Positions 28,247 through 62,003 of a stretch of DNA of 64,000 nucleotides are shown piece after piece. Source of the stretch: a virus (lineage: Duplodnaviria; Caudoviricetes); the IMG/VR virus record IMGVR_UViG_3300028797_000006, positions 32,001 to 96,000 of that record; one strand, 5' to 3'. Position 1 is the first letter of the stretch. The number at the start of each line of letters is the position of its first letter. Made by a program: the position numbers and the translations under genes. Below the pieces are notes generated by a model. That model did no database searches. It was not told the origin of the DNA and saw only the letters and a list, made by a program, of their open reading frames with translations.

Positions 28247-28343
28247 TGGCACGGGTTGTAGGACTCGAACCCACACCTACCGCTTTGGACACGGAATCTT
28301 TACGGTTTTGAAGACCGCTGTGCTGCCATTACACTAAACCCGC
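28247..28343 (-). tRNA. tRNA-Trp(UCA), opal-decoding, with 27-nt variable region
   Basis: GCGGGTT/AACCCGT acceptor, G73, CCA; anticodon arm GCGGT-CTTCAAA-ACCGT; T arm GTGGG-TTCGAGT-CCTAC. Confidence 0.9.
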
Positions 28344-28358
28344 ATATTTAACTATTAA

Positions 28359-28387
28359 AATATAGTTAAAGTATTTTTGTTTGTCAA
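28359..28387 (-). promoter_or_regulatory. Sigma70-type promoter for tRNA(UCA)
   Basis: TTGACA-17-TATATT about 15 nt upstream of the tRNA 5' end. Confidence 0.75.
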
Positions 28388-28388
28388 G

Positions 28389-30119
28389 TTATTTTTCGAA
28401 TGATGATTTTTCTGGGAAATTAGTTTCAAAAAATTTATTTATATTAGCTCTTGTTATATCTTCTTTAATTGAAGAAACTTTTGTATCATTTAAACAGACC
28501 ATTTCTCTGTTCCTTACACAATCTCAAGGAGTATAACTATTTAATTCAAAATAATTAGATTTTTGATAAATTCTAGGTTTCTTTTTACTGACTCCTTGAT
28601 ATTTCATACTATCAATAAACAATAAAGATGGAACGACATTCTTTTTATGTCTAAAACGTGAAACTTTCATAGCATCTCAAATTTCATCCATATATTTACT
28701 CATAAAATCTATTTCATAAGATTTTAATCGTCCATCTGGTAAATGACTATAGTAAATATAGTTACTTCTTTGTCCGCAAATATTTTTTATTAAGAACTTA
28801 GTAGTATTATTTACAACAGAAGATCAAACGCCACTACCATTACCTCAATTTGCAGACATAGTTCCGGTTTCTCCATAATAAAGTGTATCACCTTCAAAGA
28901 ACATATCCCTTGGAATAGGATTCATAAAATAAAAGTCATCATTACAAACAATAAAATGATTACTTAAATCTTTAATTCTATAATAGAACGTTTCAATAAC
29001 TAATGTACTAAAAGTTGGTAAAAACTCTTCAGGGATGAATTCATCATGATACACAATTCTAAGTTTCGGACATTCTCTATTTAATCATTCAGGTAATTGA
29101 CTTTCTCTTTGAACAACTAAAAATACTTTATGTACTCAAGGACAATTTTTTTCAACACATCTAAATCAATATTTAAATACGCCTCAATCACGAGTTCTTT
29201 CAGTACCAAAAGCTTGAATATTAGAAGCATCTTGAATACCTTGATCAATTTCTAATTGTCTATATTTATTAAAATCTGCGCGTCAATTTTCATCATTAGG
29301 ATTAACTCATGGTACAATAATATCAATGTTTTCTCCGGTATTACAAGATTCTAATAAATCAATACGCTCTTCTTCAAACTGATTGAATCTCTCTAAATTA
29401 GATGGCATATTTACTCCTTGAAAATCTAAAAATTCATTAATAGATAAATTTTTATCATCAATATAAAAATCTGCATTTGGTTTACCAAATCACAATTCGT
29501 CATACTTAACGCCATTTTTATCTAATCAAGCACGTGTAATAGCATCATATTTAGCTATACGCTCTTCTATTGTTTTACAACTTTTTGCGCCACGAGCAGT
29601 AGAAAGAATAATCTTTCATCCTTGATCATGGAAACGATTAATTTGCTTAATTGTTTCAACAAGAGGATAAGAATTTTCAAAATCTCTATTTTTTGTGAGA
29701 CATAAGGTGTCATCAATATCTATACAAAGTGTGTTATATCTTTCTCTACTTTTAAGATATTCCTTTTCTTTTGTTGTGCTGATATTTGGGGTACGATCTA
29801 AAAAAACTACTTGAGCAAAAGTTTTTATACGATCAATATCATGGTATCCTTTATATTCTGAGCCACAAGCAAATATTTGGACATGTTTCAAATAACTAAA
29901 TTTATCTTCTTGTGAGTAAAGAGGCACTACTTCATCGACATATCTAATGCTTAAAAGAATTTGTTTACGTTCTTCATATGAATAAAAAGGAATTTTGCCT
30001 TCAGGATTTACATTTACACCTACAACTAAATAATCGCCTAAAGCTTTAGCTCTGCGCAATAAACTAATATGTCCGTAATGTAGAATATCAAATGTTCCTG
30101 TTGTAAATACCTTTTTCAT
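28389..30119 (-). CDS. Fusion: TagD-like cytidylyltransferase + HAD capsule-type phosphatase + Stealth-family phosphotransferase (>=12 TGA)
   Basis: GTFDILHYGH...RTPNISTT; IDIDDTL...STARG...GKP.ADFYIDDK; IDIIVP(W)V...RD(W)G...P(W)V...PE(W)LN...PTFS...NDDFYF; single frame. Confidence 0.85.
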
Positions 30120-30463
30120 TATCGACTCCTATGATATCTTTTTGGTTTTCTAGGTTTCTTTTCTTTTCTTTTATACGGGACTCAGCCTTTATTATATCCC
30201 GTTTCAATTGTATTCAACTTCTTAATCCAGTATTCCTCGCGCTCATTAAGTTTTGCTATTGGGCATAACTCAATTACATCTGCGCGAAAATTACGCCAGT
30301 CAGTCTTCCAATCTTTTTGCATATCTTTATTTGGATGATGACCCTTATAAAGTGCATTAATATGCTGTTTACATCTAAAATATACGTTCTGACTTTGCCC
30401 AACGTATATTTTATTTTTCTTAAGGTTAGTTATTTTATATATTCCAGATGTTGGAAGCGTCAT
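30119..30463 (-). CDS. GIY-YIG endonuclease (1 TGA)
   Basis: SGIYKI...YVGQS...R..QH...EREEYWI...GYN; readthrough ends in a TAATG overlap with the next gene. Confidence 0.85.
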
Positions 30464-58279: not shown

Positions 58280-58355
58280 TGGCACCGCTAGTAGGATTTG
58301 CACCCACGTAAGACGACTTAGAAGGTCGTTGCATCATCTTCTATGCTATAGCGGT
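58280..58355 (-). tRNA. tRNA-Arg(UCU)
   Basis: Cloverleaf, loop CTTCTAA, CCA. Confidence 0.9.
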
Positions 58356-58360
58356 AAATT

Positions 58361-58435
58361 TGGCACCCTTGGTAGGAGTTGCACCCGCATCCTGAGTTTC
58401 GTAGACTCACATTCTATCTGTTGAACTACAAGGGT
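58361..58435 (-). tRNA. tRNA-Arg(ACG)
   Basis: Cloverleaf, loop CTACGAA, CCA. Confidence 0.9.
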
Positions 58436-58438
58436 AAA

Positions 58439-58529
58439 TGGCAGAGACGGTGGGATTCGAACCCACGGGCCCGTTACAGGCACACAAGATTTCAAATCTA
58501 GGCGCTTATGACCACTTGCGCACGTCTCT
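58439..58529 (-). tRNA. tRNA-Ser(UGA)
   Basis: Long variable arm, loop TTTGAAA, G73, CCA. Confidence 0.9.
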
Positions 58530-58618
58530 AGATGGTTACTCCCAACATAAACCTGATAAAGGGGTTTCACCTGGCATTCTTTTTTATCTGCTCATGACTA
58601 GTATTGAGCAAGTAGGTT

Positions 58619-58704
58619 TGGCAGAAGCGGAGAGATTCGAACTCTCGGTCCTTGCGGACTCTTGTTTTCTAGACAAGTGGTTTAAACCGCTCACCCACAC
58701 TTCT
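58619..58704 (-). tRNA. tRNA-Ser(AGA)
   Basis: CTTGT-CTAGAAA-ACAAG, variable arm, G73, CCA. Confidence 0.88.
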
Positions 58705-58875
58705 ATATTGTCATGCTAGTATCACTGCTAACGGCTAGACAGAGCCGGGTGGTTCACAAACACCATTCGCCTGCAGATCTTCGCTGTAGACCCAAGCAGT
58801 GCTTTTCGATAGACTGCCTCGCTGTCGTTTCGTTGATTAATCGGGTAGACAGCACCATACCTGTTATAAATTATT

Positions 58876-58970
58876 TGGCAGAGAACGCCGGACTTGAACC
58901 GGCACCCCGGATTACTCCGAGTACTGGCGGTTTAGCAAACCACTGCCTTACCAATTAGGCTTAGTTCTCT
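58876..58970 (-). tRNA. tRNA-Ser(GCU)
   Basis: Loop TTGCTAA, long variable arm, CCA. Confidence 0.9.
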
Positions 58971-58973
58971 ATT

Positions 58974-59049
58974 TGGTGCGCCTAGAGTGATTCGAACACT
59001 CGACTCCATAATTAAAAGTTATGTACTCTACCGGCTGAGTTATAGGCAC
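58974..59049 (-). tRNA. tRNA-Lys(UUU)
   Basis: CATAA-CTTTTAA-TTATG, CCA. Confidence 0.92.
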
Positions 59050-59239
59050 ATATGGTGGGCCTTACACCCACTCAAGAGGTATCGTAACGCGTGTCATACT
59101 TGCGAGTTTAAAGTTTTCTTTCTTATATAATAAGGAAGTAGCGGCCCCTGCCTACTTTACAATGGACTTCTTTGCGAGGCTCCGTTCTCCTTCTCATATT
59201 GGTTATTTTGAGAACTATCCATTAACCTTATAAATTAAT

Positions 59240-59315
59240 TGGTACTCCGCCTGGGACTCGAACCCAGATAACACTAATTAAGAGTTAGTTGCACGACCAG
59301 TTGTGCTAACGGAAT
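59240..59315 (-). tRNA. tRNA-Lys(CUU)
   Basis: ACTAA-CTCTTAA-TTAGT, CCA. Confidence 0.92.
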
Positions 59316-59318
59316 ATT

Positions 59319-59419
59319 TGGTGGGAATTGAGGACTCGAACCTCCACCTCTCACTTCACCGAGAGGCCTTTGTTTCACCCCGTTTTCGCAGGGCGGTGCC
59401 ACCTTGACACTTTCATCCC
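59319..59419 (-). ncRNA. Atypical tRNA-like RNA without a canonical anticodon loop
   Basis: T arm TTCGAGT and CCA end; 6-nt loop CGAAAA; extra 7-bp arm. Confidence 0.6.
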
Positions 59420-59422
59420 ATT

Positions 59423-59507
59423 TGGTACCGGAAGTGGGACTCGAACCCACACGTCTCTCGACAATTGCTTCTAAGGCAATCTTCTGTGCCAACTCGAATA
59501 TTCCGGC
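59423..59507 (-). tRNA. tRNA-Leu(UAG)
   Basis: ATTGC-CTTAGAA-GCAAT, variable arm, A73, CCA. Confidence 0.9.
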
Positions 59508-59510
59508 ATT

Positions 59511-59597
59511 TGGTGTCTAAGGTGAGACTCGAACTCACACGCCCTTTCGGACATTACCCCCTCAAAGTAAGGCGTCTACCAGTTCCGCCACTTAGAC
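59511..59597 (-). tRNA. tRNA-Leu(GAG)
   Basis: TTACT-TTGAGGG-GGTAA, variable arm, CCA. Confidence 0.88.
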
Positions 59598-59603
59598 GTT
59601 TTT

Positions 59604-59736
59604 TGGAATAGGCAGGAGTTGAACCCGCATAAAATACTTCTGTGATGACAAACAATATTCCGATAGATCTGCCCATAAGTCATCTAATTATTGGACTCGT
59701 CCCGTCAGCTCTCCCATTTGAGCTATAACTATTCCA
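59604..59736 (-). ncRNA. tRNA-like RNA with D and T arms but an ~80-nt structured insert replacing the anticodon arm
   Basis: TGGAATAG/CTATTCCA stem, GCTC-AAATGGGA-GAGC, GCGGG-TTCAACT-CCTGC. Confidence 0.6.
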
Positions 59737-59740
59737 TATA

Positions 59741-59816
59741 TGGTGGTCAGACTCAGAGTCGAACTGAGGTGCATGGTTTTTCAGACCATTGTACCAACCG
59801 TGTATACCATCTGACC
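59741..59816 (-). tRNA. tRNA-Phe(GAA)
   Basis: ATGGT-CTGAAAA-ACCAT, CCA. Confidence 0.92.
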
Positions 59817-59818
59817 AG

Positions 59819-60364
59819 TTAGATGGAATCTGCTGTAATTCCACTATTATCGCACATTCTAATAACTTTCATCATCTCGACAGGAGTATAATCCCATCTT
59901 TCTACACATAGACATGCGCCATTACGTGCGATTGTAGGGAACATGCCATGAAAGTCCTTTGCGTGCACATGACCATAGAAGTGATAGTCATATGTATCAT
60001 GTGAGTTTCCTGGACGCGCATCAGGTCTGTGTGAGAAGAAGATTTTATTCCCTGCAATTTCTTTAATGAATGAAGGTAATACTTCTTCAAAACCGCAATC
60101 AAGATAGAATTGTTTGGACTTAGTGTCGTGATTGCCGCGCACTAGAATTTTATGTCCTTTAAGTCGAGGAATGATCCACTTAAGTGAAGACTCTTGACCG
60201 AGCCCGACATCACCAAGATGAATAACAATGTCGTCATCTGTGACTACTGCATTCCATCTCTTAATCATTGCGTCATTCATTTCTTCAATAGAGCGAAATG
60301 GTCTATCTTCATATTGAATGATATTTTTATGATTGAAGTGAGTGTCGCTAATTAAATAAATCAT
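59819..60364 (-). CDS. Calcineurin-like metallophosphoesterase embedded in the tRNA array
   Basis: SDTHF, HLGDV, RGNHD, SHRP, YGHVH. Confidence 0.9.
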   Translation of the reverse strand: MIYLISDTHFNHKNIIQYEDRPFRSIEEMNDAMIKRWNAVVTDDDIVIHLGDVGLGQESSLKWIIPRLKGHKILVRGNHDTKSKQFYLDCGFEEVLPSFIKEIAGNKIFFSHRPDARPGNSHDTYDYHFYGHVHAKDFHGMFPTIARNGACLCVERWDYTPVEMMKVIRMCDNSGITADSI

Positions 60365-60387
60365 AACTTTCCTTTCTTATACAAATA

Positions 60388-60416
60388 ATTATACCAGAAC
60401 CTTTTGAGTTTGTCGA
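60388..60416 (-). promoter_or_regulatory. Possible internal promoter upstream of the phosphoesterase
   Basis: TCGACA-17-TATAAT with extended -10 TG. Confidence 0.55.
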
Positions 60417-60431
60417 TAACTTTTTTCCTTT

Positions 60432-60503
60432 TGGTCGCCGCACGTGGAGTCGAACCACGCTAAGACGCTTATGAAACGTCCGCGATCACCGGATCATACG
60501 GCG
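60432..60503 (-). tRNA. tRNA-Met(CAU) (or Ile2), short D arm
   Basis: GACGT-TTCATAA-GCGTC, CCA. Confidence 0.8.
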
Positions 60504-60505
60504 GT

Positions 60506-60582
60506 TGGCTAGGGCGGGAGGACTCGAACCTCCACAAACACGGGTTCAAGGCCCGTTGACTCTACCATTCGTCCACGCCCCA
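60506..60582 (-). tRNA. tRNA-Gln(UUG)
   Basis: U1-A72 pair, ACGGG-CCTTGAA-CCCGT, CCA. Confidence 0.9.
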
Positions 60583-60586
60583 ATGT

Positions 60587-60681
60587 TGGTACTCCCTGAG
60601 GGACTCGAACCCCCAACCAGCCAATTATCTGTTGCTATACGGGGTATAAACCCGCCGCTCTACCGGTTGAGCTAAGGGAGT
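60587..60681 (-). tRNA. tRNA-Ile(UAU) with long variable region
   Basis: GCGGG-TTTATAC-CCCGT, 24-nt variable region, A73, CCA. Confidence 0.85.
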
Positions 60682-60685
60682 ATAA

Positions 60686-60766
60686 TGGAGACACTGGCAG
60701 GATTTGCACCTGCGATGATTTACTGAGGTTGCAGCTCAGCCCCTTCGACTACTCGGGCACAGTGCC
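60686..60766 (-). tRNA. tRNA-Cys(GCA)
   Basis: CTGAG-CTGCAAC-CTCAG, U73, CCA. Confidence 0.92.
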
Positions 60767-61395: not shown

Positions 61396-62003
61396 TAACT
61401 GCCCTTTGATAATTATCTAATGCTGACCTTCGTCATACACGGCTTATTAACTGACATTATTCACACACGTTCACTAGAGTCTGAGGCAAAGGGAGCGACC
61501 CAATGACTTCTCTAATGGCATAAAGCGATCAACGGGAACAGTTTACTTTGTTCCAACTTTCACCGAGCTTCAGAGCATATTGTATATTGATCGTAACTTT
61601 CAACGTCGCGGTCAGATTTAACCTTATGTTAAAGCTTCTTCATTTGTCTTTCAGCTACTCGTACAGCCATATTCAGTTATAGGTTATTTCTAACCATCAA
61701 GACACCGGTTTCCTTTGAGTGCCGGGATATTAAGTTTCTCAGGCTTAATTCCTTAGGCGAGATGCATTACTGCAGTTGCTACTTGTCACCGCTGAATTTA
61801 GGCTTTGCTTATGCGTAGTTAACACGATGCACAACCAACTACATCCTTCACTGCTTTCCCATAGTAGGTTTACCTATAAGTTTCCCGATAGGTTTCTTAC
61901 TCACAATACAGTATCCCATATTGCTTTCATTCTGTAGCTGGCTCCAGGCGGTCCGCAAGACCATCTTCACCTGGTTGCAAAGATAATTATCAAAGAACAA
62001 TTA
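61396..62003 (-). ncRNA. Large ornate ncRNA (~610 nt, ROOL/GOLLD-like)
   Basis: No long ORF; 23-bp closing helix with G-U pairs on the minus strand; many internal hairpins; own promoter; adjacent to tRNA array. Confidence 0.7.

Follow-up and report, generated by a model that had tools for sequence, protein, structure and literature searches.

The window analysed here is a stretch of 64,000 nucleotides from a virus record of 118,402 bp, which carries a 127-bp terminal direct repeat, is rated complete and derives from sequencing runs of bovine gut metagenomes. In silico analysis of the complete genome revealed 31 tRNAs, including a single tRNA(UCA) and an ordinary tRNA-Trp(CCA). The tRNA(UCA) gene is located at positions 28247-28343 on the minus strand, is 97 nt long and has an encoded CCA end (ARAGORN; Rfam tRNA RF00005, 57.3 bits, E 1e-9), and on the basis of these calls and of its fold it was annotated as a tRNA-Trp-type opal suppressor. 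It lies 30 kb from the main tRNA array, which ARAGORN places at 58280-60766. A sigma-70-like promoter (TTGACA-17-TATATT; 28359-28387, minus strand), with matches at 11 of the 12 consensus positions, precedes the 5' end of the tRNA by 15 nt; a terminator was searched for after the tRNA and none was found. Upstream on the same strand (28392-30128) is a gene for a cytidylyltransferase-HAD-Stealth fusion with 13 in-frame TGA codons and no TGG. This gene is a client of the tRNA(UCA), and its pairing with the tRNA represents a synteny kept in a relative, L138.

The acceptor stem of the tRNA comprises 7 bp (G1.U72, C2-G71, G3-C70, G4-C69, G5-C68, U6-A67 and U7-A66), while the D stem has 4 bp, the D loop 7 nt, and the anticodon and T stems 5 bp each. 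The decoding anticodon arm (28302-28318, minus strand) reads GCGGU/CUUCAAA/ACCGU and places UCA at 28309-28311. The discriminator G73, found at tRNA nucleotide 94 (28250, minus strand), is a determinant for bacterial TrpRS (PMC9976931). Between the anticodon and T arms lies a variable region of 27 nt (tRNA nucleotides 43-69; window 28301-28275, minus strand), consisting of a 7-nt 5' linker, a 4-bp hairpin and a 5-nt 3' linker, the last giving the T stem the same spacing as a canonical variable loop does. In the hairpin, a putative pseudo-anticodon arm recognized by its fold and its homologues (28280-28294, minus strand), CCGU pairs with GCGG around a 7-nt loop, G-U-CCA-A-A, with CCA at 28286-28288. 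Contigs from the RNA libraries X3 and X21 span the tRNA including this extra arm without a gap, contigs as such showing neither transcription nor RNA ends. The original prediction, made from the DNA letters, had reported a 97-nt tRNA with a 7/5 frame, a 4-bp D stem, G73 and anticodon UCA, its own promoter and a position 30 kb from the array, and all of these were recovered, with ARAGORN, Rfam and the fold in agreement on the tRNA itself. It had also noted that the variable region can form CCGU/GCGG, which holds, but overlooked that the loop is that of a tRNA-Trp anticodon arm: G-U-C-C-A-A-A supplies U33, C34, C35, A36, A37 and A38.

Concerning the meaning of TGA, the coverage of the genome by ORFs of at least 100 aa rises from 68% under code 11 to 87% when TGA is taken as sense. 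The 73 large ORFs contain 160 in-frame TGA codons versus 231 TGG codons, TGA being present in 36 of them and absent from 37, and about 40% of the phage's tryptophans are written as UGA. The genome is low in GC, and its in-frame TGA codons cluster in a subset of the genes. Hardly any TGA is found in the replication block (window about 2100-25850), and the tRNA(UCA) stands at the start of a TGA-rich block. Pfam domains run across in-frame TGA codons, and TGA codons 274, 331 and 348 of the Stealth gene align to conserved W residues of human GNPTAB. In two orthologues of 62-63% identity, the columns of the window's TGA codons hold TGA, TGG (five cases) or TAT, and never codons for Ser, Gly or Cys. 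In TGA-rich ORFs TGG is depleted, from 1.21% to 0.55%. These alignments and codon counts indicate that TGA is read as Trp in this phage. Neither a class Ic (TrpRS/TyrRS) or class Ia synthetase nor a release factor is encoded in the complete genome. Direct comparison showed acceptor pairs 1-5 and G73 of the tRNA(UCA) to be identical to those of the same phage's tRNA-Trp(CCA). Given the lack of a synthetase or release factor, the shared acceptor features and the reading of TGA as Trp, the tRNA would be the code-switch effector that inserts Trp. The original prediction taken as a whole thus divides in two: the role as effector, which suits the sole UGA decoder in the genome, and the amino acid Trp, assigned by the acceptor pairs, G73 and the alignment of TGA to conserved Trp with swaps to TGG, were both upheld, while the roles that it gave to the extra arm were not.

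Compared with bacterial tRNA-Trp, the window tRNA possesses G73 and a Trp-type acceptor stem, but its decoding anticodon is UCA instead of CCA, the latter occurring only in the extra arm, and its variable region of 27 nt with a hairpin replaces the usual loop of 4-5 nt. ARAGORN prints the label 'SeC' only because the anticodon is tca. Both tRNA-Sec and the allo-tRNAs (Mukai et al., 2017; PMC5389517) combine UCA with a long extra arm, as the window tRNA does; however, they have an 8/5, 9/4, 8/4 or 9/3 frame and a 6-bp D stem and are charged with Ser, whereas in the window tRNA the frame is 7/5 and the D stem comprises 4 bp. A tRNA-Sec reading was rejected on the 7/5 frame and 4-bp D stem against the 8/5 frame and 6-bp D stem expected, and an allo-tRNA reading on geometry together with TGA being Trp. 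It had been suggested that the long arm and G73 hint at SerRS. A class II tRNA of the Ser type was nevertheless rejected, since the hairpin is flanked by 7 and 5 unpaired nucleotides, unlike a class II variable arm with its 1-2, and since the D stem has 4 bp and the D loop 7 nt; insertion of Ser was rejected because no Ser codons stand opposite TGA columns in orthologues and TGA is Trp. A search of INPHARED with the window tRNA returned only partial matches, to unrelated phage tRNAs.

Our scans of viral contigs revealed that the extra arm is a recurrent element of phage tRNA(UCA). The first scan was constrained by the T loop and the UCA anticodon arm alone, leaving the variable region free; 23 phage tRNA(UCA) were obtained, 15 of them long (93-98 nt), and UCCA was present in the extra loop of 13 of the 14 distinct long ones. 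In several, including L005, L007, L008, L015 and L022, the loop is exactly CUCCAAA, and in L005, L008 and L022 the gene adjoins tRNA-Trp(CCA). A wider scan yielded 53 distinct two-armed tRNA(UCA) with 46 distinct extra stems, the loops being almost all N-U-CCA-A-A. In an alignment of 26 sequences the extra loop has U55, C56, C57, A58 and A60 without exception, and the extra helix shows compensatory changes in four of five pairs with 92.9% of cells paired; one pair varies as CG 11, GC 8, AU 3, UA 3 and GU 1. The decoding stem in the same alignment exhibits changes on both sides in all five pairs, and the whole two-armed structure outperforms 500 of 500 shuffles and every slid control. The extra arm, whose stem is mostly 5 bp, always stands 4-5 nt before the T stem and is separated from the decoding arm by 4-8 unpaired nucleotides. 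Most family members share A1-U72, G2-C71, G3-C70, G4-C69, G5-C68 and G73. The comparison with UCA tRNAs of other phages, which had been proposed as a check, was thereby carried out, and in about 50 distinct tRNAs the CCA loop is kept while the stem covaries.

The same pattern scan with the anticodon-loop word CTTTAAA, which would correspond to UUA-anticodon tRNAs with a CCA arm, gave 24 matches and no tRNA, so chance does not yield such tRNAs. When genome contigs were scanned with the two-arm pattern, most of the matches listed were due to chance, and the Trp-type two-armed tRNAs among the matches listed were L259 and L282. Several genuine alphaproteobacterial tRNA-Sec among the matches listed carry UCCAAAA in the variable loop, the pattern itself having selected them; these tRNA-Sec have an 8-bp/6-bp pattern, unlike the window tRNA. 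Taken together, loop invariance and stem covariation indicate that the arm is under selection.

This conservation bears on the roles first proposed for the insert. It had been suggested to be an element for maturation or timing, a non-canonical intron or an aid in competing with RF2, none of which is in accordance with an arm that is a conserved copy of the Trp anticodon stem-loop. A related possibility is a neutral relic of tandem duplication: the arm does resemble a duplicated anticodon arm, and in L015 and L022 it differs little from the decoding arm except at position 34, an indication that the anticodon arm was duplicated in tandem. Neutrality is nonetheless excluded by the conservation of the loop across 46 different stems. 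As for an intron, close homologues supplied as in vitro transcripts function and insert Trp in E. coli extract, which has no splicing system and no known enzyme to remove such an insert (Seki et al., 2025). If a Ser- or Sec-type tRNA is added to this group, for which the 'SeC' label would speak, and against which stand the 7/5 frame and 4-bp D stem in the case of Sec and the reading of TGA as Trp in the case of Ser, the group as a whole is scarcely credible.

We propose instead that the CCA arm serves as a pseudo-anticodon through which the tRNA retains its TrpRS identity, leaving the real anticodon free to change, a reading to which we assign a probability of roughly 60%. According to this model, a tRNA-Trp derivative is transcribed from its own sigma-70-like promoter and its UCA arm would read UGA on the ribosome. 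The second arm (U-CCA-A-A), tethered by flexible linkers of 4-8 nt, would offer the anticodon-binding domain of the host TrpRS its cognate anticodon, and the arm, G73 and the Trp-type acceptor stem may jointly preserve Trp identity despite the changed decoding anticodon. The single-stranded linkers and the stem of about 5 bp could allow the arm to lie beside the decoding arm, or to exchange stacking on the D stem while on the enzyme. We infer that the arm contacts TrpRS and is needed for charging in the natural host, and its reach to the anticodon-binding domain is likewise presumed. In the canonical L-shape, however, the tip of the variable arm does not occupy the place of the anticodon, which counts against the model. 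Trp identity depends chiefly on G73, the first base pair and the bases of the anticodon (PMC9976931).

Published cell-free data were re-read in the light of the arm. In the study of Seki et al. (bioRxiv 10.1101/2025.10.30.685624), 31 phage tRNA(UCA) were assayed as in vitro transcripts in E. coli extract with no synthetase added. The sequences of the supplementary table were sorted by eye into 13 two-armed and 18 other tRNAs; one of the two-armed tRNAs, tRNAUCA-3, is identical in sequence to the tRNA of our locus L048. UGA was suppressed by all 13 two-armed tRNAs, at 26.7k-58.9k RFU (5.4k without tRNA and 69k for the wild type), and by only two of the 18 armless or other tRNAs (numbers 12 and 18). 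Activity is associated with the arm (Fisher p = 5e-7, Mann-Whitney p = 2e-5), but the tRNAs are related to one another and Trp-like acceptor stems are a confounder, and this is a correlation, not a mutational test. The tRNAs of AP1 and HF2, which are accompanied by a phage TrpRS, are armless and inactive. In the same study insertion of Trp is reported for all 13 tRNA(UCA) analysed by MS (Seki et al., bioRxiv 10.1101/2025.10.30.685624), and as just 15-17 of the 31 are active by our own count, most of those 13 must be two-armed. The activity of numbers 12 and 18 without an arm means that U34 alone does not abolish charging in E. coli extract.

These data can also be read in another way, namely that the arm is an anti-determinant (against GlnRS, SerRS, ArgRS or RF2 competition) or a stabiliser of the fold, and that Trp identity comes from G73 and the acceptor stem only. 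The two active armless tRNAs agree with this, as does the canonical set of acceptor pairs and G73 in most family members. Nevertheless, a non-canonical acceptor stem leaves two-armed tRNAs active (Seki numbers 1, 14, 16, 17 and 20), while armless G73 tRNAs with such stems are inactive. Moreover, neither function needs an invariant U-CCA-A-A, nor its switch to GAUAA in Ile and YUGA in Gln tRNAs as described below, and we therefore give this explanation little credence. Regarding synthetases supplied by the phage, a class Ic TrpRS is encoded by one of four near-complete phages with a short tRNA(UCA) and by none of four with a two-armed tRNA. The complementary distribution predicted for the arm and a phage TrpRS is not clear among those eight near-complete phages.

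The same design was observed in tRNAs for other amino acids whose synthetases, like TrpRS, rely on the anticodon for identity, i.e., GlnRS and IleRS. The window itself contains a tRNA-Ile(UAU) at 60587-60681 (minus strand; ARAGORN, Rfam) with a variable region of 24 nt, the extra hairpin of which has the loop C-A-GAU-A-A, containing the GAU anticodon of Ile. When the variable region was left free in the scan, 31 of 32 phage tRNA-Ile(UAU) were long, and GAU(A/U)A is present in all nine distinct long ones, where it is borne by 3-bp stems that covary (CAA/UUG, CGA/UCG, CGC/GCG, GUC/GAC and AUC/GAU). Further long tRNA-Ile(UAU) were found in other loci. Among distinct long phage tRNA(CUA), 33 of 36 have an extra loop with CUGA or UUGA, corresponding to a Gln anticodon followed by A37. 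The motifs do not cross over: TCCAA occurs in none of the 36 CUA tRNAs, the nine Ile tRNAs or the 181 ordinary Ser/Leu/Tyr variable arms of the same loci, GATAA in none of 14 UCA and 36 CUA tRNAs, and YTGA in none of 14 UCA tRNAs. Such arms are also absent from the 38 Trp(CCA), 42 Gln(UUG) and 42 Ile(GAU) tRNAs of the same phages, and no second loop resembling an anticodon loop is seen in the two long 'Trp(CCA)' calls. The pseudo-loops of the Ile tRNAs have A33, not U33, and those of the Gln tRNAs range from 5 to 9 nt, and hence they are imperfect copies of an anticodon loop. In the data of Seki et al. the tRNA(CUA) display a weak trend, 18 of 22 with a YUG arm being active versus 80 of 136 short ones. 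It is in our view an even bet that phages employ a general, modular trick to rewrite the code: identity would reside in a spare anticodon stem-loop inserted into the variable region (CCA for Trp, YUG for Gln, GAU for Ile), and the decoding anticodon would be left free.

Two further explanations are affected by this distribution. Phage tRNAs are thought to counter tRNA-targeting defences, and the arm might accordingly be a decoy that titrates proteins recognizing this loop of tRNA-Trp (anticodon nucleases of the host, modification enzymes, TrpRS or tRNA-sensing regulators) and so protects or reprograms the host tRNA-Trp pool. Its exact copying of a host-type anticodon loop is consistent with such a function; however, a decoy leaves unexplained that the arm is confined to tRNAs with a deviant anticodon (UCA, CUA, UAU), the Trp(CCA), Gln(UUG) and Ile(GAU) tRNAs of the same phages always lacking it, as well as the fact that the two-armed tRNAs are active suppressors in extract, and it appears unlikely. 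Alternatively, the tRNA might be a two-headed decoder whose arms swap stacking on the D stem, one reading UGA and the other UGG. In favour of this, both arms stand at a canonical anticodon-arm distance, the UCA arm following the D stem by 1 nt and the CCA arm preceding the T stem by 4-5 nt, and the extra stem is mostly of 5 bp. Yet the phage already possesses a tRNA-Trp(CCA), U34 can wobble to UGG, and Ile pseudo-loops without U33 and Gln pseudo-loops of 5 to 9 nt are unfit to decode, which makes a second decoding head very doubtful. No rival accounts for the match between loop and amino acid together with the restriction to deviant decoding anticodons.

A separate line of evidence for the pseudo-anticodon model is provided by a tRNA in which a CUA anticodon is combined with the CCA arm. 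This design is represented by tRNACUA-44 of the Seki et al. set and occurred once in our scan of IMG/VR, in G016, a genome of 146 kb and 93% complete. The tRNA(CUA) of G016 adjoins tRNA-Trp(CCA) and has the same chassis as the window tRNA. The ORF coverage of this genome is 0.886 with TAG as sense versus 0.731 under code 11, and it is therefore TAG-recoded; at 93% completeness it contains no other suppressor tRNA and no TrpRS. In its TAG-rich ORFs TGG falls threefold, from 1.37% to 0.45%, and Gln codons are not lowered, whereas loci with YUG-arm CUA suppressors present no TGG depletion (1.34% against 1.58%). Scoring of Pfam domains with TAG as W or as Q gave ambiguous results, W being preferred for SH3_3, GIY-YIG, Glucosaminidase and Amidase_2 and Q, by 30 bits, for the DUF285 repeats, where the positions are variable. 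It was replaced by a test of homologue columns. In a 247-aa protein of G016, TAG codons 42, 88, 100, 132 and 195 stand opposite W in 40, 49, 54, 53 and 54 of 54 homologues, respectively, and TAG is found at every conserved-W column. A search for related loci with a 907-aa protein of G016 retrieved only itself. These columns and codon frequencies show TAG to be Trp in G016, and YUG-arm CUA suppressors go with Gln; the TAG-to-Trp code of G016 is apparently undescribed. Position 35 is a principal determinant for TrpRS, and E. coli tRNA-Trp with a CUA anticodon (su7) is mostly taken by GlnRS and charged with Gln. Trp as the meaning of TAG in G016 despite CUA would thus be hard to explain unless Trp identity is read outside the decoding anticodon.

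With respect to known systems, the window phage resembles the TGA-to-Trp phages of gut and rumen (Borges et al., bioRxiv 10.1101/2021.08.26.457843; Seki et al., bioRxiv 10.1101/2025.10.30.685624), in its size of about 120 kb, low GC, TGA in part of the genes, one tRNA(UCA), insertion of Trp and reliance on the host TrpRS. The term 'variable arm' has no occurrence in the available text of either study, and the extra arm is not described there. The window tRNA is therefore a member of a known suppressor class of TGA-recoded gut phages; what is new is the recognition that the arm copies the Trp anticodon loop, that it is conserved and that it is tied to function. Canonical tRNA-Trp and its suppressors (E. 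coli trpT UGA, su7) share with it G73, the acceptor stem, the D and T arms and the loop C-U-N-C-A-A-A, and a single change at position 34 converts canonical tRNA-Trp to UCA. The canonical forms, however, are class I with a variable loop of 4-5 nt, and the phage CUA form with a CCA arm goes with TAG as Trp. The window tRNA belongs to the class proposed here, that of tRNAs with an extra hairpin between the anticodon and T arms showing the anticodon of the canonical isoacceptor.

No description of a natural pseudo-anticodon arm was found in full-text literature searches. The same concept, with a cognate anticodon on a variable-arm hairpin, has been realized synthetically by Mukai (2020; PMC7590224), in tRNAs whose variable-arm hairpin shows GUG to HisRS while the real anticodon, CUA, decodes a stop. 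Those tRNAs used an allo-tRNA chassis and a HisRS fused to an extra anticodon-binding domain, with a modest effect (PMC7590224), whereas the phage tRNAs occur in nature, are built on a class I chassis with a 7/5 frame and would presumably need no modification of the host TrpRS, GlnRS or IleRS. The need of the synthetic tRNAs for a fused synthetase counts against the pseudo-anticodon model. Anticodon-arm mimics in mRNAs (the E. coli thrS operator and yeast aaRS mRNAs; PMC9976931) are also comparable, as an anticodon-like hairpin is bound by the synthetase and follows its identity rules; they differ in regulating translation of the synthetase mRNA and in not being part of a decoding tRNA.

How the suppressor tRNAs of recoded phages are charged by host synthetases is explicitly named as an open question by Borges et al. 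(bioRxiv 10.1101/2021.08.26.457843). If the pseudo-anticodon model is true, it would represent a new principle of tRNA identity, in which recognition and decoding are placed on separate arms, and would account for suppressors that work across hosts, including in E. coli extract. The two-armed design would offer a chassis for codon reassignment in synthetic biology. Finally, it would explain TGA-to-Trp and TAG-to-Gln recoding, the decoding of AUA by UAU and the TAG-to-Trp code of G016 in phages without a synthetase of their own.

The use of TGA around the gene for the window's tRNA(UCA), a tRNA with a Trp chassis and an extra hairpin, was found to be sharply divided into two parts, namely positions 2100-25850 versus 25900-49300 of the window. 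TGA is absent from the replication genes of the former block, including those for a topoisomerase subunit and a 1339-aa ORF, while genes of the latter contain up to 18 TGA each; the tRNA(UCA) gene is located at the boundary between the two. On the minus strand, positions 28392-30128 carry a fusion gene whose product combines a glycerol-3-phosphate-type cytidylyltransferase, a HAD-like phosphatase and a Stealth (CR1, CR2, CR4) hexose-1-phosphoryl transferase. This gene contains 13 TGA and no TGG, and therefore every Trp residue is written as TGA.

A full-length ROOL RNA (61404-61998, minus strand; Rfam RF03087, 222 bits, E 5e-49) adjoins the main tRNA array. In addition, a 95-nt tRNA-Ile(UAU) (60587-60681, minus strand) has a hairpin in its 24-nt variable region, the loop of which, C-A-GAU-A-A, copies nt 34-38 of the Ile(GAU) anticodon loop. 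More than 20 distinct tRNA-Ile(UAU) of phages retain this extra arm, and its stem covaries among them. A related observation concerns tRNA(CAU) of 90-92 nt (loci L123, L126, L128, L131, and L133), whose extra hairpin contains GGAUAACA, with GAUAA partly inside the stem. These may be tRNA-Ile2-type tRNAs bearing a putative Ile pseudo-anticodon, i.e., a copy of the anticodon of the canonical isoacceptor.

As a rule, long tRNA(UCA) on the Trp chassis show CCA in the extra loop. However, the 98-nt tRNA(UCA) at L011:2905-3002, with the same chassis, is an exception, its long variable region lacking a CCA loop. Among the matches listed for the two-arm pattern in genome contigs were genuine tRNA-Sec genes, with 8-bp acceptor and 6-bp D stems and the V-arm loop UCCAAAA (L265, L284, L300, L309, L324, and L376), several of them from alphaproteobacterial records. 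Since the search pattern itself selected these genes, the motif may be coincidental.

Regarding phage amber suppressors, CUGA or UUGA, corresponding to the Gln anticodon plus A37, is contained in the extra-hairpin loop in 33 of 36 distinct long tRNA(CUA) (L143-L256). The supplementary table of Seki et al. (10.1101/2025.10.30.685624) lists the natural loop variants CUGC (tRNACUA-83) and UUGU (tRNACUA-86) as weak or inactive. In the 146-kb phage G016 (L388-L395; IMGVR_UViG_3300028805_000058), in-frame TAG codons align to conserved Trp, and the sole suppressor, a tRNA(CUA) (L387:7800-7892), bears a CCA pseudo-anticodon arm. In Borges et al. (10.1101/2021.08.26.457843), the recodings reported are only TAG-to-Gln, TGA-to-Trp and TGA-to-Gly, TAG-to-Trp not being observed; judging from sequence, the code of G016 is apparently TAG-to-Trp.
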